Position numbers and translations under genes: made by a program. A stretch of 63,616 bases of DNA, taken from the IMG/VR virus record IMGVR_UViG_2851982317_000002; one strand, 5' to 3'. Position 1 is the stretch's first letter; each line of letters starts with the position of its first letter. Of this stretch, positions 46,694 through 63,616 are shown one piece after another. This DNA comes from a virus (lineage: Duplodnaviria; Heunggongvirae; Uroviricota; Caudoviricetes). The notes under the pieces are model-generated. The model ran no database searches, was not told the origin of the DNA, and was given only the letters and a program-made list of their open reading frames with translations.

Positions 46694-47075
46694 AAATGAA
46701 TCTCAGAGCTGAATATATAAGTAGTATTAGAAACCGGGTTATACTTAAGAAATCAATCTTAAGTGTGGCAGTCGAATGGTAGCTAATATGCTAGCGGCGC
46801 TAATGCCTGTTTGTTGCTCATAACAGGCATTCACTTTAGTTATGGCAGAAAAGTATACATGCTGGGTTGGGAAAGTGTGAAAGAAAGGAAGATTGCTGCG
46901 CCGTTTGTCGTCACGTTTATCTTCATTGGCTATGCAAGTCGTAATAAAAGGTGGGACAAAACTGAGACACATAAAGCCTCGCAATGGCTTGCAAGGCTTT
47001 ACATGTTTTGATGTGGTGGGACGTGTGAGCGCAGTGTTGATGGGGTAATGCTTTGAATTAGAAGCGGATTCTTAT

Positions 47076-47121
47076 AATTCGTAATGCGAAGGTCGTAGGT
47101 TCGACTCCTATTATCGGCACC
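47076..47121 (+). repeat. attR core: 46-bp direct repeat of the thrW 3' end (tRNA fragment, not an intact tRNA)
   Basis: Identical to 1399-1444; lacks the tRNA 5' half. Confidence 0.75.
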
Positions 47122-47731
47122 ATTAAGAAAATCAATAACTTAGCTTAGCTTCTCTAAGAAATTGTATCTTCTGTTATCACTTACAAACGCCTATACGTTG
47201 TTATGGGCTTTGGTAGTGTAACACGTATGGGCGAGTAGTTCCCAGGCTCAACCTCGTAACAAGTTCCTTTGAAGCTGGAAGACGTGCCACCGTCTCTAAA
47301 CCTTCTACCAAAACTCTTAGCAAGATGTTCCACACCTGGCGCGGTGTCCAATGATGCTACACGTCGAGATGACGTTGCAGAGGATAAACAGGCTAAATGA
47401 TGGGAAGAGTAGTTTTAAGTGCATAGTGGATTAAAGCCCACCTCTTCAAAACCTAACTTGATCGGGAAAGAATCAAGCTCTAGCACGGTTTCGTCCACCG
47501 GAGTACAACGGGTGCCTGATAAGAGAAGAACTGCTAAGACTTCATAGCTTTTGTGAAAAAGCCCTTTTTAGTGGATACGCCTACGGCGCTTATTTTTTGG
47601 GGTAGCCCATCAAAGGCGCTTTATGGCTCCTATTGTCTTGAAAATGTATCTTTACTTGTATTGTGTTTTATGCGTAGTCTCCCTGTGTAGTATGTAACTT
47701 GTTAATTTTCATATGAATACAGAGGCACACG

Positions 47732-47896
47732 ATGAAAAACATTGCAGCTATCAAACGTAATAACCGCAAGATTCACGCTCGTAAGTTCCTGTCTACGCCA
47801 GAAGGAAAAGCCTGGCTAGAGCGTAAACAGAGAGAGAACGAAGAAAGAAAACTCCTTAGTGAGTTGAAAGTAAGCGACTCGTCAGAACCGTATTGA
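47732..47896 (+). CDS. small hypothetical protein, 3' end altered by IS66 insertion
   Basis: ATG at 47732 with AGAGG RBS; reading frame runs into the IS left end at 47870 (last residues now VSDSSEPY); joining the two target-duplication copies would restore ...SELKWLKD-stop. Confidence 0.4.
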   Translation: MKNIAAIKRNNRKIHARKFLSTPEGKAWLERKQRENEERKLLSELKVSDSSEPY

Positions 47897-47899
47897 TAT

Positions 47900-49471
47900 T
47901 TACTGAGAGCTCAGATCAACTTTCCAGGGCAACAGATCGCGTACCCGGTTTGCCGGCCAGTCCTGGATATGTTCAATGACGTAACGCAGCCACTTTTCTG
48001 GCTCCACATTGTTCAGACGGCATGTGCCGATCAGCGAGTACAACACCGCCGCATGTTCACCACCGCTGTCGGAACCCGCGAACATCCAGTTTTTCCGGCC
48101 TACGGCCACTCCCCGTAAGGCGTTCTCTGCGATGTTGTTGTCGATTTCCACCCAGCCATTACTGCAGTACACGTTCAGTGCATCCCACTGTTTCAGCAGG
48201 TATGCGAACGCTTTTGCCGTATCTGAGTGACGCGACAGTGTTTTCATCTGTTGCTGTATCCAGTCATACAGTGACTGCATCAGTGGCGCGGCTCTGGCTT
48301 TTCTTGCCGCCAGACGCTGTTCTGCTGAACAGCCCCGGACCTCTGCCTCGATGGCATACAGTTCACCGATACGCTGCAGGGCTTCCGTGGTGATGTAGGT
48401 GGGCGCTCTTGCATGCACATCGTGGATTTTTCTCCGGGCATGAGCCATACACGCGGCTTCCGTTATTCTGCCGGATTCGTATAACGCCCGGTAACCACCG
48501 TAAGCATCGGCCTGAAGCACACCGCTGTAACCGGCCAGGTGATTTTGTGGATGGATACCTTTCCGGTCCGGACTGTACGCGAACCAGACCGCCGGGGGCA
48601 TCTGTGAACCGGCGTTACGGTCATCACGGACGTAGACCCACAGCCGGGCTGTCCGGGTTTTACCGCTGCCCGGCTCCTGGACCGGGACGGGGATATCATC
48701 AGCATGGACTTTACCGGGCATCAGCACATACTGGCGCAGGACGTCATACAGCGGCTCCAGCAGTTCAGCAACAGCACCTGTCCAGCGCCCCAGTGTGGCA
48801 CGGCTCAGCTCCACTCCCTGACGACGGTATATTTCTGACTGGCGGTATAACGGCAGATGGTCTGCATATTTCCCGGTGACAACATGGGCCAGAAGCCCCG
48901 CTCCGGCATAACTGCGTGCAATGGGTTTTGAAGGTACTGGTGCCTGCACGATATGGTCGCACCGGCAACAGGCCTGTTTCGGACGTTGTGTTTCAATAAC
49001 CTTAAAGGCGCTGCTGATAAGCTCCAGTTGCTCTGACACATCACATCCCAGAGAACTGAGTTCACCACCACAGGCAGGACAGCATTCCTCTTCCGGCCGG
49101 ATAACCCGGGTTTCACGGGGAAGTGAGGCCGGTAACGGTTTACGGGCTGAAGACTGGCGCAGGGCGGATGGCAGTACCGGGTCATATTGCTCACCCAGCG
49201 TTTCCGCCATTTCTTCCTGAAGTGCGCTGATTCGCTCCTGTGCTTCCTGTATCTGCCGTTCGGTTTTTGCACGAAGTTTTTCTGAGCTTTTACCGAACTG
49301 CATACGTTGCAGTTTCGCAACCAGCGCCTTCAGCCGGTTGATTTCGGAAGCATAAGCCGCCACCCGCTGTGAGAGCAGGCGGTTGTATTCAGCCATCTGG
49401 CGGATGGTGTCCTGTTGCGTCTGCAACAGTGCCCGCAGGCGGGCGTTCTCATGAGCAAGTGAGGTGTCCAT
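47900..49471 (-). CDS. tnpC: IS66-family transposase (TnpC/Orf3)
   Basis: 523 aa; N-terminal leucine-zipper-like region, CxxC...C motifs (CCPACGG) and conserved IS66 transposase core. Confidence 0.85.
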
Positions 49472-49490
49472 ATCCTCACTTTACAACGGG

Positions 49491-49838
49491 TTATATGCGG
49501 ATTCCAGCGCGTTCCGTTCGTTTCGGGTGCTTCCAGTTGATACCTTCAAGAAGCATGGATAACTGAGCCGGAGTAAGGTGCACCTTGCCGTCACGGGTGA
49601 CTGGCCAGACGAAGCGGCCCCGCTCCAGGCGTTTGGTGAAGAGGCACAGTCCGTCACTGTCAGCCCACAACACTTTTATCTGGTCACCCCGGCGTCCGCG
49701 GAAGATGAACAGGTGTCCGGAGAACGGGTCATCCTTCAGGACGTTCTGAACTTTTGATGCCAGGCCGTTAAAGCCATTTCGCATATCGGTGATACCTGCA
49801 ACCAGCCAGATACGCGAACCTGCAGGGAGAGATATCAT
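49491..49838 (-). CDS. tnpB: IS66 Orf2 (TnpB)
   Basis: 115 aa, MISLPAGSRIWLVAGITDMRNGFNGLA... characteristic of IS66 Orf2. Confidence 0.8.
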   Translation of the reverse strand: MISLPAGSRIWLVAGITDMRNGFNGLASKVQNVLKDDPFSGHLFIFRGRRGDQIKVLWADSDGLCLFTKRLERGRFVWPVTRDGKVHLTPAQLSMLLEGINWKHPKRTERAGIRI

Positions 49839-50515
49839 CAGTGGCTGCTCCCTTTTATTTCGCGGATAAGTGTCTGTAATAACGCCGGCGTCAGTTTACC
49901 TTTAAGCCTGAGAGTTCCGGCCGGCAGAACCAGCTCACAACACAGACTGTCGGACGGTGTATTTATCTGCTCTGGTTCCTGTGCGGGGGCCGGGATTTTA
50001 TTATCCGGCTCCGGCGTTAACGTCACGGGAAGCAGTGCCGGCATATTTTTTCCGGAAGGCAGCAGGCCACCTTTCCGGTATTGATGGCGCCAGTTGAAGA
50101 GCAGGTTATCGTTGATTCCGTTTTCCCGGGCGATCTGCGCCACACAGGCTCCGGGCTGCAGTGACTGCTCCACTAAGGCGATTTTAAACTCATAAGGGAA
50201 GTTGGGCCGCCGGGGACGTTTTTTTACCACGGGGGCTTCGGATATAACGGTGCTTTCAGGACGTACGACTGGTACCGTGGAAAATTGTCCGTAAAGGCAG
50301 GCATCAAGTTCCTGCTCCGACATGCCTGCGGGCAAAGGCCACGAAAGGCCAGCTCTCCGAAAGCGCACGAACATACTACAAACTGTTGATTTTGGTACAC
50401 CCAGGCGACGCCCGGCCACAACCCGGGGTAAATGTTCTTCAAAGTGAAGACGTAAAGCTTCAGTGATCCAGGTCCGGTGTTTCATACGATAGTGTCCATT
50501 AAAAATGATGGACAT
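49838..50515 (-). CDS. tnpA: IS66 Orf1 (TnpA, HTH)
   Basis: 225-aa ORF overlapping the tnpB start; HTH-like region (FKIALVEQSLQPGACVAQIARENGINDNLLFNW); true start may be the internal ATG near 50485. Confidence 0.65.
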   Translation of the reverse strand: MSIIFNGHYRMKHRTWITEALRLHFEEHLPRVVAGRRLGVPKSTVCSMFVRFRRAGLSWPLPAGMSEQELDACLYGQFSTVPVVRPESTVISEAPVVKKRPRRPNFPYEFKIALVEQSLQPGACVAQIARENGINDNLLFNWRHQYRKGGLLPSGKNMPALLPVTLTPEPDNKIPAPAQEPEQINTPSDSLCCELVLPAGTLRLKGKLTPALLQTLIREIKGSSH

Positions 50516-50657
50516 TATTTTTGTAGAGCCGGAGGAAACAGACCAGACGGTTTAAATGAGCCGGTTACAGTTGAAATGGCTTAAGGATTGAATCACCAGT
50601 AGGCGCATAACACATCCAGCGATCAAAGATGTGTTTATGCGCCTGATAGTGAAATTA

Positions 50658-50816
50658 TTAAAGTCGTTTAGTTAACATCGCCATTGCTTGAGCAATAATT
50701 GCAACAGCGTCCATCTCTTCACTGGAAGCGATGCAAATGCGGTAACTAATAGCCACAATGAATACATCAATAACGAGAAAGTGAATAGTGTGAAGATGTT
50801 TTGAAAGTAAATGCAT
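50658..50816 (-). CDS. hypothetical small protein (52 aa)
   Basis: ATG 5 nt after GGAGG (minus strand); translation MHLLSKHLHTIHFLVIDVFIVAISYRICIASSEEMDAVAIIAQAMAMLTKRL done by hand; followed downstream by an imperfect 15-16-bp hairpin (50610-50651); not in the supplied ORF track (below 60 aa). Confidence 0.3.
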   Translation of the reverse strand: MHLLSKHLHTIHFLVIDVFIVAISYRICIASSEEMDAVAIIAQAMAMLTKRL

Positions 50817-51210
50817 AACTTCCTCCGGTTTTGGGATAGGAGGATTAGAACATGCATTAAATGATGTTGCAAGAATGGCAATTTACCCTAATAGTCTACT
50901 ATTCACCTCAATCTACGTCAACCAATATTTGATGTAGATTTAATTTTCTTTTAAAAACAATATGTTGTTATTTGTTGAATTTTGGGGTTAGGTTGTTTTT
51001 TGAACGTTTTCATCAAGTGTAAAGATACGTTTAGCCTTCATAGTGAGTTCAGTTACTGTCTTTTTCTCTGAAATCGGCGCAAACGTGATCATCGCTTGAG
51101 GTTGCTGCTCTTACTTCTCAAATTGTGATGGAGAACGATAAAGGTTAGAGGGCACTTTTATTTTTTTAAGCAAGTGTATAGCATAAGAATAATCTAAAAA
51201 GGGAGGTTAT

Positions 51211-51762
51211 ATGCGCAGGTCTGCATTTGTGAGGATGATGATTTTTACAACGTTGTTTGTAGGGGGAACTTCTACCGCAGTTGCTAAAAACTGCAAAAAA
51301 GGAATACCTTGTGGTAACTCGTGTATAGCTGTTGGTAAGACGTGCCGGATTGGCTCTTATGCCCCTTCATCTTATAAAAATCATTCATACTCTTATCCTT
51401 CATCCTCTATTCGAAGCTCGCAATCAAATAATTCACGAAAAACTGAAGGAGTGAAAACGACTCCTGCTGCCAAAAATTATCTTTGCCAATACTCTATTGC
51501 ATCAATCGAAAACGGACGTTTAGGGGCATTACGTGTTCAGGGATACGCACAAGTAACTTTATATGCAGATAGCTTCAAGGCTAACAGATTAAATGGAACA
51601 TATTTGATATCGCCAAAACTGAATGCTAACGGCAAGTTTATGATGGCAGATGATAAAAGCAAGGTTTATGCTTATGATTCTTGGCTATTAAATTTTGCAA
51701 TAAGCGATCGTATCACAAGAACGACAGAACAATGGGATCGATGTAAGCTCAATCAAAAATAA
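51211..51762 (+). CDS. hypothetical secreted protein (signal peptide, Cys-rich N-terminus)
   Basis: 183 aa; ATG 4 nt after GGGAGG; N-terminal signal-like MRRSAFVRMMIFTTLFVGGTSTAVA then CKKGIPCGNSCIAVGKTC. Confidence 0.5.
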   Translation: MRRSAFVRMMIFTTLFVGGTSTAVAKNCKKGIPCGNSCIAVGKTCRIGSYAPSSYKNHSYSYPSSSIRSSQSNNSRKTEGVKTTPAAKNYLCQYSIASIENGRLGALRVQGYAQVTLYADSFKANRLNGTYLISPKLNANGKFMMADDKSKVYAYDSWLLNFAISDRITRTTEQWDRCKLNQK

Positions 51763-52158
51763 CAGTTAGAGAAGCTCTTGTAGAGGCATTATTGAGTTAT
51801 TGGTTTTAATATTTTTGTGCCTCTATGGGCTTTTTTTGCCTTTTTGCAAAGTAGGAGAGAGCACAGGAATCGTTAAAATTAATTATTGGGGTATTTAAGG
51901 TTATTTTCAGGTGGTTTAAGGGTATTAAACTTGATTTAATTGATTAAAATATAAACAGATAGCCCTGCATCTTATTGATTTATAAGGTTATTTTTAAATT
52001 AAGGTAAATAAAAAATAAATAGCCATAAATAGCTATAAATACATCTAAATACCTTTATCCCTTCCCTTATGGCTAGATTGCGAGAAGTGCTTAACGCGAT
52101 TTTCACCGCCCCCTGATCTGGAAAATCCAGAATCCCCAAATATCAGCAAGGAATTTTC

Positions 52159-52452
52159 TTGCGTAATCAACATCGTTTTTACCTATTAAATCATTACACA
52201 GAAAGCCTTTCTGTAATGTCTCTCACTAAACTTTCACTAAACACGAGAATGATCGGTTTTATGTCGGATCAGATGCTAGAAACAGCACCACGTCTCACAA
52301 GGGCTGTAAGCGATGAAACCAGTGTTTATGCGGGTGCAGGTCAAAATATGGGCCAAAATCCATTTAACATAATAATCGTAATATGCACTAAGGAACACAT
52401 AGAACGCCTTGAGTTGATGTATCAGGGGAAAAGTGGTGGATTTTTTACGTAG
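52159..52452 (+). CDS. hypothetical protein
   Basis: 97-aa ORF in an AT-rich region; no RBS or motif support. Confidence 0.2.
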   Translation: MRNQHRFYLLNHYTESLSVMSLTKLSLNTRMIGFMSDQMLETAPRLTRAVSDETSVYAGAGQNMGQNPFNIIIVICTKEHIERLELMYQGKSGGFFT

Positions 52453-52916
52453 GAGCACGAGAGGGCTTCTATTGACTTTTGTATGCTATGAAATATAATA
52501 GAAGGTTTTTTATTTTTATGTTGATAGTGATTGCACATTAAAGATTGAAAGCAAATTTAAACATAAATTTTCAACACGTGAAAGAAACTTGTTCGACAAA
52601 TAATAGATTGATTTTTAATCAACAATTTCTGATAGTGCGCTGTAGCCGCATTACACAAGGCTTTGCGAAAGTGATGTAAAAGTGAAGAAAGTAAGAATTG
52701 CACTTTTAAGCTACTTTTCATTGAATTTTTACGTAGGAATTACACAGGGATTAATCATCAATTACATTGAATTTAAGCCTGTTTTAGATGTTTAATTTTG
52801 GTAGCAAGAAACACTTTTAGAAGATCATTGCACAGATGTTATGTGATAAATGGATGTAACGGTAGGTCACTGTGAGCTACCCCTATCAAGTCTGATACCC
52901 GATAAGTATAAATAAC

Positions 52917-53019
52917 ACCTGGGAAATGAGTTCCGATCTATTTAGGAAATAACCGTGGAAGTGGTTTCCTACCTACCTAGGAAATGAGTTCCTATCACCT
53001 AGGAAATGATTTCCGACAA
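52917..53019. repeat. array of four palindromic (T)AGGAAAT(G/A)A...TTTCC motifs followed by a very AT-rich stretch
   Basis: Motifs at about 52921, 52944, 52979 and 53000 (GGGAAATGAGTTCC, AGGAAATAACC...GGTTTCCT, AGGAAATGAGTTCC, AGGAAATGATTTCC), then AT-rich 53020-53090. Confidence 0.5.
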
Positions 53020-54122
53020 TACTATAATTAAACTACAATTAAACTATATAATATAATTCTTTTTTATCTTTATAAGAATAATTATAGGGATACCCGTTAG
53101 GGAGTCTAACGACTATCCCTTAATCTATTGGCATTCGCCAGAACCTTGCACAAGTTAGAGTGTTAGTCGTTAGACTGCTTGTCATAACACATAGTTTTTG
53201 TTTGTTGATGTTAGTTAGTAGATCTATGTTCGCTAATGCCGCTCACAACGAATATGTAATCTACTATGTGCAAATAGCCTACGGCTTGCGTAAGGCTAAA
53301 TAGTCTTGCGCTGTGCGCAGAACGATAATTAACTAACTACCATCTAACGATTGAAATTTACTTGTGCAATAACCTGAGCGTAAGCGAATGGTTGTTAGTG
53401 TCTATGCGCTGTGCGCTTCAATAGTTCCATTGATGAGGCTTACGCCAATCTAACGATCATCAATCTATTTAAGAGAAAATCTATTGTGCAATACTCTGAC
53501 GAGTGCAATAACCTTGTGTGCTACGCGTTAGCGATGTTAGCACATAGACACAGACAACAACCAACAACAAACAAAAAAGAATGGTTTTAGTAGTTGAAGG
53601 TTAAATAAGTTTCTACCGCTTAAATCAAGCCGTAGGCGAGCTAAACGTATATAAGGCAGGGAAACCTTAGCGGTAATAGATTAGCTCATTATAGAGCTTC
53701 TGAGGAGCTTTACAGGTATTTTATAAGGTGTCTGAAATTAGAGTTTATCTATCATCTCCTTTTCATATACCTAACAAATACAAAATAAGCCCCTTAAATA
53801 AACCTCTGGCGAGCTAAACTGTCATTACATAAGGGAATGTATTGTTTTTATCAAAACCTCGTTAGAACGCGTTTTAGAGAATAAGGAAGAATAGCATCAC
53901 ACAGAAGAGCACGAATTGCTAAGCAAAATCATAACATACTGAAAAATGATCAATATTTTATGGGTGGGGGTTGACAAAAGCCTTTAGTTATGGTAAAGTA
54001 ATATTAGGGACAGGAAAACATTCCTATCCTCTAAATAATTAAACCAATGCACCGCACTTTGAAGCCCAAGAGGCTTGCAAGGTGTCTTTTTCTTTTAACC
54101 AAATAGAATAGGAGGTTAATTA

Positions 54123-54299
54123 GTGAAGTATTTCACTTCTCAAGATGTAGTTGAAGCCTGGAAACGTGGTGAGATCAACCGCTTTAGGGTAAGAATGAAT
54201 AGGAACACAGCGCGACGCTGTGGTTATCCAGAGCGTGAAAAATGTTTTGACGATGCACTAAAAATTATTGATGAACTGCGTAAAGCAGAGAAAGAATAA
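54123..54299 (+). CDS. hypothetical small protein (58 aa)
   Basis: GTG start 7 nt after AGGAGG; hand translation MKYFTSQDVVEAWKRGEINRFRVRMNRNTARRCGYPEREKCFDDALKIIDELRKAEKE; not in the ORF track (below 60 aa). Confidence 0.35.
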   Translation: MKYFTSQDVVEAWKRGEINRFRVRMNRNTARRCGYPEREKCFDDALKIIDELRKAEKE

Positions 54300-54322
54300 T
54301 AACAGGAGAAGGAGAAAACCAA

Positions 54323-54511
54323 ATGAATATTAATTTTGATTCTGCAACTTATAACGCGTTGTTAAATCGTGCAAAGGCAGAAGGGAAATCAATTCCAAAA
54401 CTTGTTAATGAATTACTAATTACAGTCCTTACAAAGGAGGAACTAAATGATCAAAAATATCAAAACAATTGCCGAAGCGAAAGCCAAATGTCTAAATCAG
54501 AAAGATGGTAA
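54323..54511 (+). CDS. hypothetical small protein, possible ribbon-helix-helix regulator
   Basis: 62 aa; AGGAGAAGGAGA RBS; N-terminal YNALLNRAKAEGKSIPKLVNELL resembles an RHH/CopG-like fold; overlaps the next gene by 65 nt. Confidence 0.4.
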   Translation: MNINFDSATYNALLNRAKAEGKSIPKLVNELLITVLTKEELNDQKYQNNCRSESQMSKSERW

Positions 54512-55115
54512 ACAAAAATATGTAGTCGTTGAGCAGTGGTTGAAGATGTTTAAAAAGTGGTTCTCACCGTCAGGTAATGAATACACCGCTACACTGCCAG
54601 CCGTTGAAATCTATAGCTATATAGCTGGATTCAATGAACAAGGGCAAGAATGTTACGCCACTCAAAAAACATTATCTAATATTGGAATGGTTAGTGATCG
54701 CCAGGTTCGCAATATTATAAATATGTTTGTTGATATGGGAGTTCTTTCTGTAGAGGCTCGGGACGGGCAAACATCACTCTATAAAGCATTACCATTCACA
54801 GATGCACATATTACTCCCCCTGGAGAGTCATCACTACCTGATCCTTCTGAGAAAGAAGACGAATCTAATGAAATATTGAATGTTTCAGAAATCATCATTG
54901 AAGAAGAAACACAGGAATCAGAGTTCCCTGAGCGGCCCGAAATTTTTACTTGGCTTCTTTCCCTTGATAAGAAGAAACCACCGCACGAAGAAACAGAAGA
55001 TTTTGTAAAACGAGCATTAGATTCAAAGAATATCTATCTTTGTGAAAATGATTTTGACTCTTTGATAATTGATCTCAAAAGTGAGAGCACAATATATGAT
55101 TCACTACCCTTTTAA
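54447..55115 (+). CDS. hypothetical protein with HTH-like segment
   Basis: 222 aa; strong RBS AAGGAGG 6 nt upstream; HTH-like TQKTLSNIGMVSDRQVRNIINMFVDMGVL; acidic C-terminal half. Confidence 0.5.
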   Translation: MIKNIKTIAEAKAKCLNQKDGKQKYVVVEQWLKMFKKWFSPSGNEYTATLPAVEIYSYIAGFNEQGQECYATQKTLSNIGMVSDRQVRNIINMFVDMGVLSVEARDGQTSLYKALPFTDAHITPPGESSLPDPSEKEDESNEILNVSEIIIEEETQESEFPERPEIFTWLLSLDKKKPPHEETEDFVKRALDSKNIYLCENDFDSLIIDLKSESTIYDSLPF

Positions 55116-55381
55116 GGAGAATAAATGGCTTATAACATCACTATAGGAAACAAAACTATTGAAATAACTGAGAGCGGATACCACATTTTAAAAGCTATTT
55201 TGGAAATAGAGTTCTCACCGCCGACAGTGGTTAGCTTTTAGGGTTTAGCTCCTATCATCATTTTTTGGGATTTAACGCTTTCAATAATTGTGTAGGTGGT
55301 GCATCGGAAGTCGATCTGATGGCTCATTTAGAAGATACATTAGCTTCTAACAAACGTTCTAACTAATAAAATGATGGGTGT

Positions 55382-55627
55382 ATGTATAAGCGCCCAATGA
55401 AAATATTCGAAAAAGGAAAAATAATGATTGGCTATATTCAAGAAACACAATTATTTCAGATGATCCTGTCTGATGCAAAAAACTATGCTGAGTTAATCCG
55501 ACTGGCAAAAGAAACAGAAGACTACGAAGCATTAGAGCGTTATCGTGATGAAGTGCTGACGCTCAAGACACCTTTTAACATCGTATTGAATATGATTAAT
55601 GATGCATTACAAGGAGAAGCCGCATAA
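55382..55627 (+). CDS. hypothetical protein
   Basis: 81-aa ORF; start ambiguous (ATG 55382, 55397 or 55424; the last has the best RBS). Confidence 0.35.
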   Translation: MYKRPMKIFEKGKIMIGYIQETQLFQMILSDAKNYAELIRLAKETEDYEALERYRDEVLTLKTPFNIVLNMINDALQGEAA

Positions 55628-55935
55628 TGGAAGAAGATATTAGCAATGCAATGGAACAACTTTTAGATCTGACTATCTCACTACAAACAAGAATAAATCA
55701 AGCCTATTCAGATTTATGCGATTACACGCTCTCTCAATGCGTTATTAGCTTAATGAAGGTGAATGTAAGCCTTGACGATTTTATCTCTCTGGTGAGCGAT
55801 TTAGAGCTAATTGAGGACGATGCCAAGATGTGCACTCAAACCATCACAGACACCGCCAGCACGTTAAAGGCTGCAAGTGAAGAGATTCAGCAATTAGTAG
55901 ACGATTTAGCAAAAAGTGCTATTTTCTCTAAATGA
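55627..55935 (+). CDS. hypothetical protein
   Basis: 102 aa; AGGAGA RBS; TAATG overlap with the upstream ORF. Confidence 0.4.
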   Translation: MEEDISNAMEQLLDLTISLQTRINQAYSDLCDYTLSQCVISLMKVNVSLDDFISLVSDLELIEDDAKMCTQTITDTASTLKAASEEIQQLVDDLAKSAIFSK

Positions 55936-56919
55936 TAATGAAAATAATTTGCATTTATAACGATTTCATTATATAATGATATTAGGGGTAGATAAAAAGG
56001 TTTTGACTGGTGTTAATCCTTCTACTGTCATAAATCCCTGCATATGGAAGGTGATAGCCTCAAAGGTTGAGTGGCATTAACCTCTAACAAATATTACCTT
56101 CCATCTCTCAAGAAGTTTTAGAATAATCATAACTCCCTCTTTGATTGTTGATTGTTTCTACGTTGTGTTGATGAATGTTGTTAGGCATTGTGCTTAATTT
56201 TGATAAAAGCGGGTAGGTGTTATCTCCTTGCCCTTCCCGCTCTTATTTTTCATCTATGCTTATCCTAAAGCTCCTTATTTTGTCAGAAAATATTAAAGAG
56301 CCTTACACTGATAGTTATATTTTATAACTATTTACTAACATCATTAAACTATTATTTAATGACAGAAGTTAGTAACAGAATAATCTATTAAGTTGTTGTC
56401 AAAAACAATCATCTGCATAGCGTTAGCCGCAAGCAGAGAGAGTTTAGCTAAGAATGGTGCAATAAACTTTGGAAATATTGATAGCAAAACGGGTTTTATA
56501 GAATGCGGATCTATAAGCTTTGGTTGTAAAAACGATTTTCTGAAACGGTAGATTACTGTTGGTGTAGTTAATCATTATTAAAAATTTAATCTGTGAGTAG
56601 ATTGGAATAGTGATTCCTTAAAATCTGACTGGTGCATCCACACCATGAAAGATAGCGGTTGGCCACCGCGCCCCGAATAGATATTCCTGATTGATTCCGC
56701 ATGTTTTCCTAAGAGCATGTTTTCAGGAGTATCTATTCACCCTTTAAGCATATCATCAAGTATATTTAAAAAGTGTATTTGCTGATATGTTTAATCCTCT
56801 TATAGTTTAACTTATCAATTATGTAATTGCCCGCACGTTAAAGCCCCTTTGCTGGTCAGAATTAACCTCTTACGGCATTGGGGCTTTTTATTTGTCTGGC
56901 ACTAACAGGAACGTTATTT

Positions 56920-57117
56920 ATGAAACAAGAAATGATTATCAGCAAAGACGGGGAAACGATGATTGTTAGTGATGAAAACCTCATTAAGGTTGCCGCACTG
57001 TTGGGAGTTACTCCCGAAAGTCTTCGTTCTACCACTGCTCAATTATTTAAATCGGCTGATGCGGTTAGTCTTGCTGATGCCCTTAAATCTAAAATTAAAC
57101 AACTGAAAGGAAAATAA
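56920..57117 (+). CDS. hypothetical small protein
   Basis: 65 aa from the ATG at 56920 (track TTG at 56878 lies inside an upstream hairpin); first gene of a six-gene same-strand cluster. Confidence 0.4.
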   Translation: MKQEMIISKDGETMIVSDENLIKVAALLGVTPESLRSTTAQLFKSADAVSLADALKSKIKQLKGK

Positions 57118-57121
57118 TCTT

Positions 57122-57505
57122 ATGGCTAACCCATATGGAAAATTAAAAGTAGTGAATGCGGATAACTCCCGTTCACGCTGTAAGGTAGTAGCTTACGCTG
57201 CTGATCCAGTGCTGCAAGATCGCCTCGTCAAACTGGCTTCACCTCTCACTGACGATCTTATTGTCGGGGCTTTGCTGAAAGCCGATGGCACCAAAGCAAC
57301 AACCGCATCTGATATTGCTCACGTAGTAGTTGAACCGGCTTATGAAGGACAGGAAAGCGTAGTGGTTGCACATCCTACTTTCGTTATTCTGGCTGAAGAT
57401 GGGATTGAATTTAACAGCATGGAAAAGGCAAGTGTTATTGCAAAACTGCAATCTCTCGGCTTTGTAATTGCTGGTTATGAAGAACTTGCGATCCCTACGA
57501 CTTAA
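57122..57505 (+). CDS. hypothetical protein
   Basis: 127 aa; AAGGAAAA RBS; 4-nt spacing from the upstream gene. Confidence 0.5.
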   Translation: MANPYGKLKVVNADNSRSRCKVVAYAADPVLQDRLVKLASPLTDDLIVGALLKADGTKATTASDIAHVVVEPAYEGQESVVVAHPTFVILAEDGIEFNSMEKASVIAKLQSLGFVIAGYEELAIPTT

Positions 57506-57519
57506 CAAGGAAAATAATA

Positions 57520-58551
57520 ATGAATGATTTATCAACATATTTTGGCGTTAATACTGCGGTAGTAACTCCTTTTGCTTATGAGAATGCACTTAATACCCTG
57601 ATTACTAATCTCGATCTGTTCGATGTGCAATATCATACAGAAAACAGCATTCTTCTTACCGACCTGATTGATCAGTTTGTGCAGGTAGCTGGGGAAACCT
57701 CGCCTTACGCTCAAAGCGACTGGAACGCCTCTAAACGTCAGGAATGGTCAAACAAACTTTTCCAGATGAAACACGTCGGCAGTATTAACGCTGTTACTTC
57801 TCGTGACCTGGAACAATACAGCCGCCAATATCCAAACCGTTCTGATGCTATGCTGGTAGCGGTTAATGATTTCTCTGAGGCTCATTACCGTTCACACGCA
57901 AACCGTGTTGAAGTGGATCTGATTACCGCGCTGCTGGGCCTGAAAGTTGAATCTGAATATGCCGGACAAGGTGATCTCGACTTCCTCGACGGTCAGGCTA
58001 AAACCACGGTACCCGCTATCGACTTTGCATCGACAACTGTTAACCCGTTCCTTGCTATTCGTAAAGCGGTGCGCTTACAGAGTGAAAAGCTGGGGTCTGG
58101 TCTTGCTGCAAAGCGAACTGGTGTAATTATCTTTGCTGCTGGCGCTGCTGCTGATGGTTTGTCATCTAACCCGCTGATCAGTGACATGGTGAAATATGCA
58201 GGCGATGCGAGTGCTACGGCCCTGTTTACCCGTATGGTTGATTCTAACCCAGCCTATGACTCTTTCCAGATTGGTGGGATCACTGTTATTGATGTGTCAA
58301 TGTTTCCTGAGATTGTTGCTCACATCGGAGAGAACGGTTTCGCAATTGTTCCGGTAATGGATAAAGCGGCACAGTGTTACCAGCTTCATAGCGGCGTTGG
58401 TGTGCGTCATGCTGAGTTAGGTCAAGATGCCGTGTTGCATCACCAATATCTAATCAAGGATGAATTCCAATTCCCATCTGTGGTTACTGAGACATCTTAT
58501 CTGCCAGTAAACAACATTCCGCAAGCTATCATCTTCGGATCTGCTGCGTAA
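57520..58551 (+). CDS. hypothetical protein (possible phage structural protein)
   Basis: 343 aa; AAGGAAAA RBS; no catalytic motif; position ahead of a small ORF and a tape-measure-like gene suggests a major tail or capsid-type protein, but this is inference only. Confidence 0.5.
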   Translation: MNDLSTYFGVNTAVVTPFAYENALNTLITNLDLFDVQYHTENSILLTDLIDQFVQVAGETSPYAQSDWNASKRQEWSNKLFQMKHVGSINAVTSRDLEQYSRQYPNRSDAMLVAVNDFSEAHYRSHANRVEVDLITALLGLKVESEYAGQGDLDFLDGQAKTTVPAIDFASTTVNPFLAIRKAVRLQSEKLGSGLAAKRTGVIIFAAGAAADGLSSNPLISDMVKYAGDASATALFTRMVDSNPAYDSFQIGGITVIDVSMFPEIVAHIGENGFAIVPVMDKAAQCYQLHSGVGVRHAELGQDAVLHHQYLIKDEFQFPSVVTETSYLPVNNIPQAIIFGSAA

Positions 58552-58702
58552 TAAAGCGTTAATAGACGATTCCCCATCGGGGCAATAAGGGTAAAGGGAT
58601 TAACTAACCTGTAGGCGCAAATACAGTAACGAATCTCTTTGCCCTTTTTGTTTTTCTACTGTCTACAAACCCAAATAAAAATATATATGTGAGAGAAAAC
58701 CA

Positions 58703-58900
58703 ATGAATACAGAAAACCCACAATCCTTTATTCTTAAGGCTGTAAAAGAACTGGCAGCTATTAGCGATGACTCAATAATCAATGTCAGTGCCTTATGCAG
58801 AATGCTTTCAATTGATGCAAATAATGTGCGGCAGCGTGTGTTTCAGACTGGGTGCAGCACTTTTGAGGCAATCCAATATTATTGCTCTAAAAAACAATAA
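58703..58900 (+). CDS. hypothetical small protein
   Basis: 65-aa ORF between the 343-aa and 633-aa genes. Confidence 0.35.
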   Translation: MNTENPQSFILKAVKELAAISDDSIINVSALCRMLSIDANNVRQRVFQTGCSTFEAIQYYCSKKQ

Positions 58901-58934
58901 CAAACAATAATCATAATACAGGGAAACAATTAAC

Positions 58935-60836
58935 ATGTTAGAAATTACCGCCTCACGAATTAGTAATGTTGTGACATTTACCACTGATTTCAAGAGCTTA
59001 CAGAAAGCTAAGAATGAAGTGGATAAGCTACAAAAGAAGATGCAGGGGATCAAACCTGTGCAAGTGGCGGCAGCACGTCAGAAAGATTTACAGAGGCTGG
59101 GAAAAGAGATTCAGCGCCAGCATGATCAGCATGTTAAGCGGGCTGTTAAATCTGAGACACAGGCATCTAAAGCCAGCACTAAACAGAAGCTACAGGAAGC
59201 TAAAAACCTCGCTAAAGCACAGGCTAAACAAGCCTCAATTGCTGAAAAGGCAGAGATCAAGCGCCTTGCATCATATCGCCAGTTACAAGGCATCAAGAAC
59301 AATTCCCGCTATGGCGAAGGGATGGATATTAAGAAATATCACGATGCTCTACGTTACATTAAGGAACAAACCCGCCTCTATGAATCCGGCGCTATATCGC
59401 AAGCGAAGATGAATGCCCTGATCCGTGACCGCATCACATTAGAAAGACGAGCCGCAGCCGCTGCTACGCGTCGTAATGCTGCCGCTGGGGGTGTATATCC
59501 AGTTACTTCTAAGAAGCTCCACAAAGAAGGTGTTAGCGGCGGTGGCGCGTTAATGATGGGCGGTGTTGGTGGCATTATCGGCGGCGCTGCCGTTGGCTTA
59601 GGAAGTATGGCTGTATCTGCTGGAATGGAAAAAGCCCGTGAACGTATGGAATTGCAGAAGATGAGCGATCTGGTAGGCGCAGACTCCAACCAGGTGGCTG
59701 CAATGGTTAATTGGGGGAGGGCAAACGGTGTATCAAGTGCAAGCGTGGACAAGACCACTGACAATATCAAAGACTTAAACGAACGCATTGGTCATCAAAG
59801 CCGAACTGCTGAATGGGATAGTAAGAAAAAAGAGTGGCGAGGCGGGGAAGGATCATTAAATGATATTCAGAATGCCTTTGCATGGAACAAAGATAAGATA
59901 GCTTCCTACCAGGGGCGACCGCTGCAACTCCTGCAAGACGTGGTGAGAGAAGGTGAACGCCGAGGAATGACTAAAGAAGCCATCATATCCCTGATCGAAC
60001 CATTAGCAGACGATGCCAGCCATTATCTCAAGATGTTTTCCCGTGATGGGGAAGAGTTCCGTAAAACGATGGTTGATATGGAAAACAACGGGCAGCTACT
60101 GACAGAAGCACAGAAAGAGCAATATCGCGCAGCTAACAAGACAGCTACAGCCTTTGACCGTCTGACAGATGGACTATCGAATCAGGCTATTTTGGGCTTC
60201 TTTGATGGCATAGCCAACATGCCAGCACTCAAACCGGAAGAAAGCAAAGCCTTACAGAATGCAGCTTATGGTGTTGGTGCATCGTTCGGGGATTTGGCTA
60301 AACAAGGCGCTGTATTACTGACCTCTATGACTTCTTACGGGAATCAAATCACAAGCTGGATTAATAAACATCTTAGCCGTGGTGAGAATGATAACCGACC
60401 TGAGACACAAAAGGTTATGGACGCTGTTACAGATGGGGAATGGTCGCCATCAACGATTATCAATGAAGGTATTCGTTATGCAACTGGACTCGATACGAAA
60501 GATGTAGGGCGTATTGTGCGCGGTGAGGAAACACAGTCCGGCGTTCCAGGGTGGTGGACTGATTTAATTAATGGCAATGCTAACAGCTACGGATCAACCC
60601 TTGTTGCACGTAAAGCAGAAGCCTATCAGCCGACTGTAAGCCTACAACGTCAATACGCAACTCCTGTTAACGTGAATGCACAGGTTACGGTGCCGAGTGA
60701 TATGATCTCTGTTAACGTCATCCCTAACGGTCCCGGCTTTCAGGATTTAATCCGCACTGAGATCAGAGCGAACAACAATCAGTTTAGTTCGAATCTGATT
60801 CTTAGCACGTTGTCAGGACAGAGTAGCGTTAACTAA
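58935..60836 (+). CDS. tape-measure-like protein (coiled-coil N-terminus + Gly-rich hydrophobic segment)
   Basis: 633 aa; N-terminal Lys/Gln/Ala-rich coiled-coil-like region, then GGGALMMGGVGGIIGGAAVGLGSMAVSAG; overall composition reminiscent of small tape-measure or pilot proteins. Confidence 0.5.
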   Translation: MLEITASRISNVVTFTTDFKSLQKAKNEVDKLQKKMQGIKPVQVAAARQKDLQRLGKEIQRQHDQHVKRAVKSETQASKASTKQKLQEAKNLAKAQAKQASIAEKAEIKRLASYRQLQGIKNNSRYGEGMDIKKYHDALRYIKEQTRLYESGAISQAKMNALIRDRITLERRAAAAATRRNAAAGGVYPVTSKKLHKEGVSGGGALMMGGVGGIIGGAAVGLGSMAVSAGMEKARERMELQKMSDLVGADSNQVAAMVNWGRANGVSSASVDKTTDNIKDLNERIGHQSRTAEWDSKKKEWRGGEGSLNDIQNAFAWNKDKIASYQGRPLQLLQDVVREGERRGMTKEAIISLIEPLADDASHYLKMFSRDGEEFRKTMVDMENNGQLLTEAQKEQYRAANKTATAFDRLTDGLSNQAILGFFDGIANMPALKPEESKALQNAAYGVGASFGDLAKQGAVLLTSMTSYGNQITSWINKHLSRGENDNRPETQKVMDAVTDGEWSPSTIINEGIRYATGLDTKDVGRIVRGEETQSGVPGWWTDLINGNANSYGSTLVARKAEAYQPTVSLQRQYATPVNVNAQVTVPSDMISVNVIPNGPGFQDLIRTEIRANNNQFSSNLILSTLSGQSSVN

Positions 60837-60909
60837 GTTTAACGATAACTAATAATAAAGCGGGGGCAATATTTATTGCTTTCCGCTCATTACACAAGGA
60901 TTAATATAA

Positions 60910-61566
60910 ATGGTTATCAAAGAAAGTCAGATCAACAGCACATCTAACATTAATACATCTAACAGCAAGGTTAAATCTGATAACGGATTTGCCATTATAT
61001 GTAGCAACCTGAATAACGAAAATGCATCAACGATAGCCAGTTATAAAGCTATTACTTTTGACGCTGTTCCGGCAACTAAGGTTTCACGTTCTGCCGATGT
61101 TACATCGTATCCTGTGCAGGATGGTAATGATGTATCTGATAATGTCAGGATCAAGAATAATAAACTTATGCTTTCAGGCATTATTACAGAAACACCATTA
61201 GCATTACGTGGTGATATGCTATCAAGTGCAGGGGTGAACGGTAACAGGTGTTCACAGGCTATTACTTATCTTGATGAAATAATGAATGCCAGACAGCCTA
61301 TTATTGTAAGCACAGAGCATAAGACGTTTGATAATATGATTCTGACAGGCATTGACTACGAATATAAAACAGAATCAGCTTTACAGTTTGATTTGCAGTT
61401 CGAACAGATAAGATTAGTGAGTTATGCAACTACTAACGCTATTGCTGTAAAGACCGCATCACCTAAGAGCACAGGCGGACAGGTAAAAAGCCGAGTGCCA
61501 ACCAATGCAGGAACAGCCAGCACCACTAAAGACACCCTTCCGACGTATGACGGAGAAGTGAAATAA
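60910..61566 (+). CDS. hypothetical protein
   Basis: 218-aa ORF, last gene of the cluster before the integrase. Confidence 0.45.
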   Translation: MVIKESQINSTSNINTSNSKVKSDNGFAIICSNLNNENASTIASYKAITFDAVPATKVSRSADVTSYPVQDGNDVSDNVRIKNNKLMLSGIITETPLALRGDMLSSAGVNGNRCSQAITYLDEIMNARQPIIVSTEHKTFDNMILTGIDYEYKTESALQFDLQFEQIRLVSYATTNAIAVKTASPKSTGGQVKSRVPTNAGTASTTKDTLPTYDGEVK

Positions 61567-61640
61567 TCCCTATAAAGAACGATGTAGCGAGATAATCATA
61601 AAAGAGGCTACCAATCTATGTTGAAGCCTCTTTATTGCGT

Positions 61641-62918
61641 CTATGGCGTTGTTTTACGCCTTAAATTTGATTTTTTATTGATTGATAAGCCTTTCTCTAT
61701 TTCAGGGTAGCGTAAAAGCTCAATATATTTTTTAAGCTCTACTGGAGAAGCTGCATTCTTGCTATATGTGCGGAATGTTTCTGTATTGCCGCGCTGATGG
61801 CCCAACATTAAAGCTATGCGGTCCTCTGGAATTTGATTTCGATCAAGAAGCTGTGCTACTCCGTGTCTCAGAGAATGAAACACTTTCCTTTCTGTTACCT
61901 TTTCCCCTAAAGCCTTTCGTTTAGCTCTTGTAAATCGTTGTGTATGCCACGTAGAGCGTTTACCGTCAGCACGCTCTGTAATGCTGGCGTGATAGAACAA
62001 AAAGCCATTGTGAGGCTTTTCACGAAGAGATAACACCAATGGAGTGATAAGGCTATGCACAGGCACAAGACGTGCCGCAGCTTTCGTTTTTCCCTGTGTG
62101 ATTTCAAAACACAGCACACCTTCGATCTCTTTCACATCGTCTATTGTGAGACTTGCTATCTCATTGATCCGCATCCCTGTATATAAACCGATAAGACATA
62201 AAGCCGTCATTTCTTTGTTTTCTGCTGAATTACCGGAAAATACTTGCAACACCTGCAATAGCTCTTTGTTAGAAAATGCCTCGTAGCTCTCTCTACTTTG
62301 TGCCACATCAAGCCTATGCCCTCGCCAGGGGGAGAGCGCCCTTTCTGGCGCATCGTGGTAACGTGATGAAGCTAATTCCCATAGCTGGGCCATTGGGCTG
62401 ATATAATTTGCAATTGATTGTTGTGAAAGAGTTTTTTGCATGTGTTCAATCCAGCCTGTAACAGTGGTGCGGCTTACATCTTGCAATGCAATATCAGGCT
62501 TTTTACGGTAGGAGAGAAACATCTCTACCGCTTTTCTTGCCTTAGCTAAAGTGGCTGGCTTCTTCTTCGTGCTGTTAATTGTCAGGTAGATTTCAAGAAT
62601 TTTAAGCAATGACGGACACGAAGACGCTGTATCTTGCATTCTGGTAGCTGTTTTGGCGTATTTAGCCTTACTGCGTAACAGTTCCAGCGTGTTTTCTATT
62701 GTGCTGTTTACAGGGGCAACACTCTCCCGTAAGCAATGGTATTCATCTGCAATCTGATCACGCTTTCTACGTGCAACACGAAGATTACTTGTGTGCAGAC
62801 TTCTAACAAACGTCCTTTTTCCTTCAAAAAAGGGCTGCATATACACAGGCAACGTGATCCTCAAATAGTAGTTACCGTAAGAATTACAGATTAAGTATTG
62901 GTTAGGCTTGTATCTCAT
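61641..62918 (-). CDS. int: tyrosine recombinase / integrase
   Basis: Catalytic motifs FHSLRHGVAQ and LGHQRGN...Y; preferred start is the ATG at 62918 with GGAGA RBS (track TTG at 63005 has none); adjacent to the degenerate tRNA fragment. Confidence 0.82.
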   Translation of the reverse strand: MRYKPNQYLICNSYGNYYLRITLPVYMQPFFEGKRTFVRSLHTSNLRVARRKRDQIADEYHCLRESVAPVNSTIENTLELLRSKAKYAKTATRMQDTASSCPSLLKILEIYLTINSTKKKPATLAKARKAVEMFLSYRKKPDIALQDVSRTTVTGWIEHMQKTLSQQSIANYISPMAQLWELASSRYHDAPERALSPWRGHRLDVAQSRESYEAFSNKELLQVLQVFSGNSAENKEMTALCLIGLYTGMRINEIASLTIDDVKEIEGVLCFEITQGKTKAAARLVPVHSLITPLVLSLREKPHNGFLFYHASITERADGKRSTWHTQRFTRAKRKALGEKVTERKVFHSLRHGVAQLLDRNQIPEDRIALMLGHQRGNTETFRTYSKNAASPVELKKYIELLRYPEIEKGLSINKKSNLRRKTTP

Positions 62919-63009
62919 AAAATCTCCGGCTAAAGTGTCGGAGCGTTTGTAATGTGAAAATTGATTGTGACGCATAGAAAATGATGATTTTTCTATAAGA
63001 TTCAATCAA

Positions 63010-63081
63010 TTAGTAATGGTCGTAGGTGATGGCATTAACACGAGATTAATCGAGTGTTTTACTCCTATTATCGGCACCATT
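63010..63081 (+). repeat. degenerate thrW 3' fragment (pseudo-tRNA / right att remnant of element 2)
   Basis: 63061-63081 ACTCCTATTATCGGCACCATT is identical to the thrW 3' end; upstream ATTAGTAATGGTCGTAGGT resembles ATTCGTAATGCGAAGGTCGTAGGT, separated by about 30 unrelated bp. Confidence 0.6.
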
Positions 63082-63205
63082 AAAATCAAAGAGTTACCCC
63101 ATATTTAAATACACCACGTTTCCTCCTGTGCCGTATTTGTGCCATTGTAACCTTGGCAATTCATCAAAATACTGTTCTGACATCAGGCAGTGCAGGTGCA
63201 GACAT

Positions 63206-63616
63206 TTAAGCCAATTGCTGCCGCCATTCTTTGACGTAGTCAATCAGGGCGCGGAGCTTTGGTGCAATATTGCGACGCTGTGGGAAATACAGATAGAAGC
63301 CCGGAAATTGTGGAAGAAAGTCATCAAGCAGCGATACAAGCTTACCGCTTTCAATATATGGCCTGAAAGTTTCCTGAGTGGCAATTGTTATTCCTCCGCC
63401 GGCAAGAGCCAGCCTCAACATCAGACGCAGATCATTAGTCGTAATCTGCGGTTCAATCGCAAGGTCGAAAGTTCTCCCGTTTTCTTCAAATGGCCAGCGA
63501 TAAGGCGCAACCTCCGGGGACTGACGCCAGCCGATACACTTATGGGTATTTCCCCCGGAGGCGAGAAAGCGCTCTCCACGCCCGGCCGCAAGGATCAGGA
63601 CGACGGGGGCAGGCAT
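63206..63616 (-). CDS. LysR-family transcriptional regulator, C-terminal substrate-binding domain (partial, N-terminus beyond window)
   Basis: ORF runs off the window end; sequence typical of a LysR periplasmic-binding-like effector domain. Confidence 0.65.
   Translation of the reverse strand: MPAPVVLILAAGRGERFLASGGNTHKCIGWRQSPEVAPYRWPFEENGRTFDLAIEPQITTNDLRLMLRLALAGGGITIATQETFRPYIESGKLVSLLDDFLPQFPGFYLYFPQRRNIAPKLRALIDYVKEWRQQLA

Follow-up and report, generated by a model that had tools for sequence, protein, structure and literature searches.

The IMG/VR virus record IMGVR_UViG_2851982317_000002 is a stretch of 63,616 nucleotides (the window) in which six consecutive genes, here called g1 to g6 (Table 1), lie inside an integrated island that we call element 2. 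The six genes are probably the morphogenetic operon of an integrative phage satellite that is bounded by attachment (att) sites at thrW and belongs to an apparently undescribed family of the Enterobacterales. The phages parasitised by this island are most likely large virulent myoviruses of the phAPEC8/phi92 type. Four of the genes, g2, g3, g5, and g6, are diverged homologues of genes of the virulent Stephanstirmvirinae myoviruses exemplified by phAPEC8 and phi92. The set of virion genes is incomplete, so that a helper would be required.

Virion genes of the operon

An earlier note on this DNA, made from the letters and a list of open reading frames (ORFs), had described a six-gene operon of unknown function. 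All six same-strand ORFs were confirmed at the positions given there, and RefSeq annotates the same six coding sequences on an E. coli chromosome that carries the region at 100% identity. The short spacings that had been described hold for the gaps of 4, 14, 34, and 73 nt but not for the 151 nt between g3 and g4, and the AAGGA-type ribosome-binding sites are clear at g2, g3, and g6 but weaker at g1, g4, and g5. All six are genuine, intact ORFs that evolve under purifying selection, with median pairwise dN/dS values of 0.26, 0.19, 0.08, 0.15, 0.15, and 0.07 for g1 to g6, respectively. The statement that none of the products has a recognizable motif has to be abandoned, as four of the six could be identified by profile, structure, or pairwise comparison. 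In direct scans of the six proteins, Pfam identified g6 alone, whereas PHROG identified g5 and g6 and gave faint indications for g2 and g3. A capsid module that the note had missed, comprising a decoration protein and a major capsid protein (MCP), makes up half of the operon. All homology found was to phage virion proteins and none to non-phage functions.

The g3 product is an HK97-fold MCP of the Phage_cap_E (PF03864) lineage. The protein itself scored below the Pfam threshold; homologues at 42 to 49% identity carry PF03864, which the phAPEC8 MCP, gp114, matches at 1e-36. The g3 family profile aligned with gp114 over its full length in hhalign (E = 4e-5). The two proteins are ~22% identical and have in common the motifs LFxVxYH and DFASTTV, the latter as (A/V)DFASTTV(N/S)P. 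The PDB entries ranked highest in a Foldseek search with a low-confidence model of g3 were the MCPs of phiTE, ICP1, Bas63, Sf14, and lambda (1e-9 to 1e-6).

The gene directly upstream of the MCP gene, g2, has a product that is, by its modelled fold, a head decoration (cement) protein like gpD and SHP. Its AlphaFold2 model (pLDDT 79) matched the decoration proteins of phiTE, Bas63, and Sf14 (4.5e-6 to 1e-4) and SHP of phage 21 (PDB 1td0; 3e-4) in Foldseek searches, with a weaker match to lambda gpD (E = 0.09), and it matched head decoration proteins in BFVD at 2e-8. Sequence comparison with the phAPEC8 decoration protein, gp115, gave no significant match, and the identity of g2 was settled by fold alone. 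The weak PHROG matches of g2 are to the same two families as those of gp115. Every one of the 172 g2 clusters bears the annotation "hypothetical protein".

The first gene, g1, encodes a conserved small protein, the basic C terminus of which (..LKGK) is likewise conserved. It occupies the slot in which phAPEC8 has the scaffold-like gp116 and is possibly a mini-scaffold; no homology between g1 and gp116 was detected by BLASTP or hhalign. In the Yersinia massiliensis locus, the most distant member of the island family described below, the g1 slot (L017:9148-9438) holds a 96-residue homologue of the N terminus of the 371-residue gp116 (50% identity, 5e-14; phrog_2970). This fragment looks like either a vestige of the descent of the capsid module from a phage or a shortened scaffold.

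The g5 product is a tail tape-measure protein (TMP), as had been suspected from its composition: a Lys/Ala/Gln-rich N terminus is followed by a Gly-rich hydrophobic segment at approximately residues 200 to 230. The protein matches phrog_16051 at 3.6e-72 and phi92 gp134 (PDB 21vq) at 6.7e-49, and its C-terminal two-thirds (residues 197 to 632) are 32% identical to the phAPEC8 TMP, gp104. A Klebsiella relative of g5 aligns over its full length with the TMP of a Klebsiella Stephanstirmvirinae phage. At 599 to 633 residues the island TMPs are always shorter than those of the phages, which have 660 to 668 residues. The g5 gene lies upstream of g6, the product of which is a Dit-like tail-tube initiator. 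It matches PF21821 at 5.6e-28 (98 bits, against a cutoff of 24.2), is 63% identical to phAPEC8 gp103, and matches phi92 gp135, from the same PDB entry as gp134, at 3.3e-69; the phiTE "tube initiator" (9cuy) was matched as well.

Between the capsid and tail genes, g4 encodes a conserved protein with homologues in 37 loci. Members of its family match several helix-turn-helix (HTH) families weakly, including Sigma70_r4_2 and HTH_17, and no homology to phage gp105 was found by BLASTP or hhalign. Candidate roles for g4 are those of a regulator, an excisionase, or a packaging-specificity factor.

In phAPEC8 the order is scaffold-like gp116, decoration protein gp115, and MCP gp114 in one place and, separately, gp105, TMP gp104, and initiator gp103. 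Synteny and homology together therefore make the operon a condensed copy of two separate structural pieces of a Stephanstirmvirinae genome, and the island lacks the ~10 kb of neck, sheath, tube, and chaperone genes by which these pieces are separated in the phage. The local gene order is the same in both, with protein lengths within ~5 to 10% of each other, and the Stephanstirmvirinae structural module is the source or a sister lineage of g2, g3, g5, and g6. The phage is virulent and ~150 kb in size, whereas the island is integrative, measures ~13 kb, and has these virion genes only.

The island and its relatives

The window spans the region from thrW (1369-1444) to yagP'/paoD, which is the thrW/CP4-6 hotspot. 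The last 19 nt of thrW, ACTCCTATTATCGGCACCA, are present in exactly three copies, at 1426, 47104, and 63061, with 0 expected by chance. Two elements sit in tandem at thrW, first a lambdoid prophage (1445-47122) and then element 2 (47123-63079), which measures ~16 kb, or ~13 kb minus the insertion sequence (IS) ISCro1. Pfam and PHROG scans of every other ORF of element 2 detected no portal, terminase, protease, or connector, and in this respect the earlier note, which had seen none of the first three there, was right.

The same gene order, with nearly constant ORF lengths, was found in 95 related loci of at least 10 genera from E. coli to Yersinia; 80 of these loci are metagenome contigs, mostly derived from the gut. 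The architecture occurs in Klebsiella, Enterobacter, Citrobacter, Kluyvera, Raoultella, Kosakonia, Buttiauxella, Phytobacter, Scandinavium, Pluralibacter, and Yersinia and in a second E. coli type, and family members sit beside an integrase at different chromosomal sites. The MCP was matched in all 95 loci, g2 in 92, the TMP in 70, Dit in 36, and the integrase in 58, the lower TMP and integrase counts being due to the many incomplete contigs. The initiator gene, g6, is confined to part of the family. When the phAPEC8 TerL, portal, protease, sheath, tube, chaperone, hub, and neck proteins were used as tblastn queries, none of the 95 loci gave a match. At least part of the region is held by 469 of 5426 complete E. 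coli genomes (~9%), and 85 hold the whole window-type operon. Literature searches found no description of the gene set of this island and no described satellite of Stephanstirmvirinae, rV5-type, or Felix O1-type phages, and the island family is apparently undescribed.

The family bears on the proposal, made in similar form in the earlier note as a decayed tail module of a cryptic prophage, that element 2 is a decaying prophage remnant from which most head and tail genes have been deleted. Its position in the thrW/CP4-6 hotspot with an adjoining integrase, the tandem arrangement with a lambdoid prophage, the IS in the left arm, and the presence of only a fraction of the virion genes would all suit such a remnant. 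Nevertheless, we regard decay as very improbable. The same reduced gene set is syntenic in all 95 loci with intact ORFs of near-constant length, dN/dS values range from 0.07 to 0.26, and the relatives are virulent ~150 kb myoviruses without an integrated prophage form. Moreover, no pseudogenised fragments of portal or terminase genes were found in the 95 family loci.

We give similarly little credence to a domesticated, helper-independent host nanostructure, either an encapsulin-like shell of g3 and g2 or a device resembling a tailocin or a gene transfer agent. HK97-fold shells have been reused as encapsulins, which are among the weaker structural matches of g3, and the portal and terminase are absent. 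However, the best matches of g3 are to phage MCPs of the phiTE/ICP1/Felix O1/phi92 lineage rather than to encapsulins, and the shell genes are linked to a TMP and an initiator that would be functionless without the absent tube and baseplate. Near-identical DNA is common to the island and virulent phages, and the element is mobile, being found in only ~9% of complete E. coli genomes. Neither the sheath, tube, and baseplate set of a tailocin nor the portal, terminase, and full head set of a gene transfer agent is present. The tailocin-like module that the note had considered is not supported, the island having, of sheath, tube, and baseplate, the tube initiator alone; the other option raised there, a compact satellite, is the reading favoured by the evidence.

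A Rep-like protein, an array of iterons, and an AT-rich tract upstream of the operon form, to judge from their sequences, a putative replication module of the satellite island. Rep matches HTH_36 at 5e-5 and the PHROG replication initiation and O-like families down to 4e-6, and the iterons are semi-palindromic and lie in an ORF-free region. In the sibling island L037, two segments are swapped relative to the window, the iteron block (52880-53017) and the gene for a ribbon-helix-helix (RHH)-like regulator together with the Rep N terminus (54319-54790). The L037 iterons (L037:4781-4990) have the form GTAACG-N3-CGTTAC, and a similar AT-rich tract follows each array. The co-exchange of iterons and Rep N terminus indicates that initiator specificity and origin travel together. 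In Citrobacter sp. NCU1, a second module consisting of the genes for a 58-residue protein, the RHH-like regulator, and Rep was observed ~5 kb past the integrase of the first island (L011:12000-12675), which suggests that this strain holds two family members in tandem.

The TMP and Dit genes form a second exchangeable cassette. Sibling island L039 is 97 to 98% identical to the window up to 58950 and again from 61583, and these breakpoints coincide with the TMP start and with a point just past the Dit stop. Inside the cassette the TMP of L039 is 29% and its Dit ~50% identical to that of the window. Sibling E. coli islands with 99 to 100% identical g2 and g3 carry either type of cassette.

A blastn search with the left half of the island against 50,697 phage records retrieved Stephanstirmvirinae only, plus one Citrobacter phage, and the DNA common to the island and the Stephanstirmvirinae is 93 to 100% identical. 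Only four phages, Mt1B1_P17, BI-EHEC, muut, and inny, encode a Rep-like nuclease of 328 to 332 residues, in which two HTH_36 domains precede an endonuclease domain at the C terminus. This domain matches the phrog_681 endonuclease at 2.4e-18, and MUG113 (21.2 bits) and T5orf172 scored slightly too low to pass the Pfam cutoffs. Each winged helix of the nuclease copies the Rep N terminus of another variant of the island. In Mt1B1_P17, 312 of 312 nt at the start of the nuclease gene are identical to the 5' end of the Rep gene of islands L035 and L043, and the second DNA-binding domain is 88 to 91% identical to the window-type Rep. Across the phage nucleases the identity of the second domain to residues 30 to 122 of the window Rep is 88 to 92%, and the first domain of the muut protein is 66 to 72% identical to a third type of Rep, from a Citrobacter island. 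The near-identity of this shared DNA is evidence of very recent recombination between virulent phages and the island family.

By its domain composition the phage nuclease looks like a dual-specificity analogue of Odn from ICP1, the myovirus that is parasitised by the phage-inducible chromosomal island (PICI)-like elements (PLEs) of vibrios. In Odn a RepA_N-like domain that is 42% identical to PLE RepA is joined to T5orf172, and the protein cuts PLE origins at the iterons (PMC8263062). By analogy, we infer that the phage nuclease may cut island origins, and its possession of Rep domains points to an ongoing arms race between islands and phages. A further segment of shared DNA (54309-54475) lies at the RHH-like gene of the island, which is 98% identical to bas60_0101 of phage PaulScherrer (MZ501100 76686-76871; L030:2515-2700). 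The phage gene is present in two phi92-like phages, PaulScherrer and VEcB, and may be a stolen satellite regulator. In these phages it occupies the variable early-gene slot that holds the nuclease in others.

A proposed satellite cycle and its precedents

On infection by a phage of the helper type, the satellite would excise by means of its integrase, perhaps with the HTH factor, and replicate from the iteron origin using Rep. The operon would then be expressed, possibly by read-through of the terminator 5' of g1. The MCP and decoration protein, perhaps with g1, would build a satellite shell, presumably a smaller one, on the portal, protease, and scaffold of the helper. In the tail, g5 and g6 would replace the TMP and the tube initiator on the helper baseplate, and polymerization of helper tube and sheath would give chimeric, slightly shorter tails, as in PLE/ICP1. 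Helper terminase would package the island DNA. Such a cycle would probably harm the helper. Harm of this kind would explain why some phages of the helper type have a nuclease with Rep domains and why the Rep/iteron and TMP/Dit blocks are swapped as cassettes.

Several observations weigh against this interpretation. Excision, replication, packaging, and transfer are proposed from comparative evidence, and the direction in which the Rep domains moved and the target of the nuclease are likewise inferred. The AlphaFold model of g3 is poor, with a pLDDT of 55. Assembly of g3 on a heterologous portal is an assumption, given the ~22% identity between the MCPs, and we know of no characterized precedent for a satellite that has a capsid protein but lacks the portal, protease, and connector. 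No small terminase or other packaging-specificity gene is recognizable in the island, and the left arm of the copy in the window is interrupted by an IS66-family element. Circular or element-length contigs were absent among the 80 metagenome loci, no terminal overlaps were found, and the IMG/VR matches are prophage predictions from isolate genomes; the missing circular contigs and the nature of the IMG/VR matches speak neither for nor against packaging. Finally, the two types of TMP-Dit cassette lie at about the same distance from all Stephanstirmvirinae that have been sequenced. Perhaps the true helpers have yet to be sampled; alternatively, helper range may not be set by the cassettes.

The two types do not match different known phage genera, and a link between cassette and helper range is unproven because both are about equally far from all Stephanstirmvirinae.

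The same genes could also serve defence. In this case the diverged MCP, decoration protein, TMP, and initiator would co-assemble with the proteins of an infecting Stephanstirmvirinae phage and block or spoil them, to the benefit of the bacterial population, and the island would spread by other means. The operon has homologues of just those proteins that start head and tail assembly or set its dimensions, the phages appear to counter the island with a nuclease that mimics Rep, and neither a packaging gene nor evidence of particles was found. Interference with tail assembly by satellites or islands is documented for Rta (PMC12987554) and for Tai (PMC11364771). We consider assembly poisoning unlikely, though worth keeping in view. 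A decoy would need no strong selection on a full-length MCP and cement protein, for which dN/dS is 0.08 and 0.19, respectively, and both the iteron replication module and the compact integrase-linked architecture, maintained at different sites in at least 10 genera, would be superfluous for it. Interference and transfer coincide in the PLEs and PICIs, so that assembly poisoning is largely a sub-case of the satellite reading.

Among characterized satellites the PLEs offer the closest set of parallels, all of them by analogy. Like a PLE, the element would be a small integrative island parasitising a large virulent myovirus. It has a shorter TMP of its own with low identity to that of the phage, and some members have a protein for baseplate or tube initiation. 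All PLEs encode a TMP (582 residues, compared with 677 in ICP1) and a chaperone, and some encode a baseplate hub; their tail proteins are 19 to 41% identical to those of ICP1, and experiments have shown that the chimeric tails are 10 nm shorter (PMC12987554). Further likenesses are an initiator with an N-terminal DNA-binding domain acting with semi-palindromic iterons, the whole swapped as a module (PMC8263062), and a chimeric nuclease in the helper lineage that joins the DNA-binding domain of an initiator to a T5orf172-type domain (Odn; PMC8263062). ICP1 MCP is also among the closest structural matches of g3.

The island differs from the PLEs in having Enterobacterales hosts and in the lack of any match to a tail assembly chaperone in the 95 loci of its family. 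The PLE integrase is a large serine recombinase, whereas that of the island is of the tyrosine type (PF00589), and the island Rep is HTH_36-type and not RepA_N. PLEs have no capsid protein and remodel the ICP1 coat with an external scaffold, TcaP (title of PDB 8g1r), whereas the island brings its own MCP and cement protein. No sequence relationship between PLE and island was found, although no homology search aimed at PLE proteins was made, and the likeness is one of analogy.

Capsid-forming PICIs (cf-PICIs) are likewise satellites of enterobacteria and make their own capsids from a satellite HK97-fold MCP, combined with helper tails. The cf-PICIs reportedly encode the full head and packaging set of a small terminase, a portal, a protease or scaffold, and head-tail connectors (Alqurainy et al. 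2023). In contrast, the island family has of the head and packaging set the MCP and decoration protein alone, and its inferred helpers are virulent myoviruses. The EPIPs of Mycolicibacterium encode an MCP and a TMP and have smaller heads and altered tail length (preprint, PMC12822802). They also encode a small terminase, adaptor, stopper, scaffold, and serine integrase, and the free particles in which they were isolated induce a prophage helper (PMC12822802). EPIPs belong to an unrelated host phylum, and the island is likened to them by description. Knowledge of satellites that bear a TMP is recent and concerns PLEs (2025-26; PMC12987554), EPIPs (2025; PMC12822802), and some cf-PICIs. General Pfam and PHROG scans found no match to the P4-like Psu, Sid, Delta, or alpha primase-helicase; no direct comparison with P4 was made.

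Satellites with an MCP are already known, namely the cf-PICIs and EPIPs, and satellites of virulent phages have so far been well studied in Vibrio only (PLE and PICMI). The combination of MCP, cement protein, TMP, and optional tube initiator, without a portal, terminase, protease, or connector, appears to be new, as does its pairing with a virulent coliphage as presumed helper and with an Odn-like counter-weapon. We are evenly divided over a broader proposition, that the family is the first PLE-like system outside the vibrios. It would consist of widespread Enterobacterales satellites of virulent, therapy-relevant Stephanstirmvirinae that bring only the parts that set size or nucleate assembly (coat, cement, tape measure, and tube initiator) and rely on the helper for the rest, and the phages would answer with dual-specificity, origin-directed nucleases built from stolen Rep domains.

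If the satellite interpretation is true, E. coli, Klebsiella, Enterobacter, Citrobacter, and their relatives gain a satellite family that targets large virulent myoviruses. Phages of the phAPEC8/phi92 type are common in therapy and biocontrol collections, and an interfering island in ~9% of complete E. coli genomes would bear on how host range is predicted and how cocktails are designed. A satellite coat built on a foreign portal, the satellite having no portal, protease, or terminase of its own, would be a new mode of capsid piracy, and with the phage nuclease and its two Rep domains the Odn strategy would have arisen a second time, independently. The gene set also raises the questions of how a coat that is ~22% identical to that of the helper uses the helper portal, protease, and terminase and why a tape measure and a tube initiator of the satellite's own should have evolved time and again.

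Other features of the window

The features of element 2, together with the phage nuclease genes discussed above, are listed in Table 1.

Table 1. Positions of features in the window and of nuclease genes in phage genomes
Feature	Position	Strand	Description
attL of element 2	47104-47122	+	19-bp copy of thrW 3' end; doubles as attR of upstream lambdoid prophage
ISCro1 (IS66 family)	47900-50515	-	RefSeq annotation; left arm, outside family core
Cargo gene	51211-51762	+	Secreted, Cys-rich 183-aa protein
Candidate replication origin	52917-53095		Four GGAAAT..TTTCC iterons (52917-53018) and AT-rich stretch
58-aa conserved protein	54123-54299	+	First gene of regulatory/replication operon; homologues in 35 loci
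RHH-like regulator	54323-54511	+	62 aa; weak FitA-like RHH and PHROG transcriptional-regulator matches
Rep-like protein	54447-55115	+	222 aa; N-terminal winged helix (HTH_36), acidic C terminus
Two small conserved ORFs	55382-55935	+	81 and 102 aa; homologues in 12-13 loci
Terminator-like hairpin and U-run	56840-56890	+	~30 nt 5' of g1; -23 kcal/mol, z = -3.3
g1	56920-57117	+	65 aa; alternative TTG start at 56878 gives 79 aa
g2	57122-57505	+	127 aa; head decoration protein
g3	57520-58551	+	343 aa; HK97-fold MCP
g4	58703-58900	+	65 aa; directly 5' of TMP gene
g5	58935-60836	+	633 aa; TMP
g6	60910-61566	+	218 aa; Dit-like tail-tube initiator
TMP-Dit cassette	58950-61583	+	Exchanged in sibling island L039
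Operon-end hairpins, terminator-like	61637-61660	+	Consensus scan only
Tyrosine integrase	61641-63005	-	DUF6538, SAM-like, and Phage_integrase domains; convergent to operon
attR of element 2	63061-63079	+	19-bp repeat
Nuclease gene, phage Mt1B1_P17 (QNJ49226.1)	MT496970 20722-21708 (L029:2225-3211)		
Nuclease gene, phage muut (muut_154)	MN850573 81258-82256 (L031:1135-2133)		
Nuclease gene, phage BI-EHEC	L032:1144-2133		

An ORF-free stretch of ~0.9 kb ends in the hairpin 5' of g1. Equivalent hairpins lie 30 to 50 nt 5' of g1 in six of the seven members that were folded, with differing sequences and the same structure; these members include L007, L008, L009, L013, and L016 and have 0.5 to 1 kb of ORF-free DNA before the hairpin. 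A terminator that is conserved although its sequence differs suggests that the operon stays silent until antitermination or some other form of activation sets in. The arrangement suggests either that the late operon is controlled by antitermination or that the spacer contains an RNA gene. No non-coding RNA was detected when 47000-63616 was scanned with Rfam, and a by-eye look upstream of the island operons revealed no convincing copy of the PHIRE motif of phAPEC8.

The integrase matches PF00589 at 2.7e-16, PF20172 at 1.4e-9, and phrog_1 at 1.6e-32. The 58-residue protein had no family match in Pfam and PHROG scans, and the same scans gave no significant match for the two small conserved ORFs. 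The cargo protein matches phrog_2578 and phrog_14768, both at ~1e-17 and both families of unknown function. It is encoded in a variable cargo slot (51091-52581) that holds other DNA in L039. A PADLOC scan of ten island proteins, including the cargo protein, returned zero matches.

Within the cargo slot, a 46-nt stretch (52072-52117) is 89% identical to one site in ~55 Stephanstirmvirinae genomes. The phage site lies among tiny annotated ORFs and is present as a single copy in the one locus examined (Eryne). The stretch is not a tRNA and has no stable fold or apparent protein-level signal; candidate functions are those of a promoter, a packaging signal, or a target of regulation. An Avs2 (AVAST type 2) anti-phage gene (42239-46693) lies just inside the attR of the upstream lambdoid prophage.

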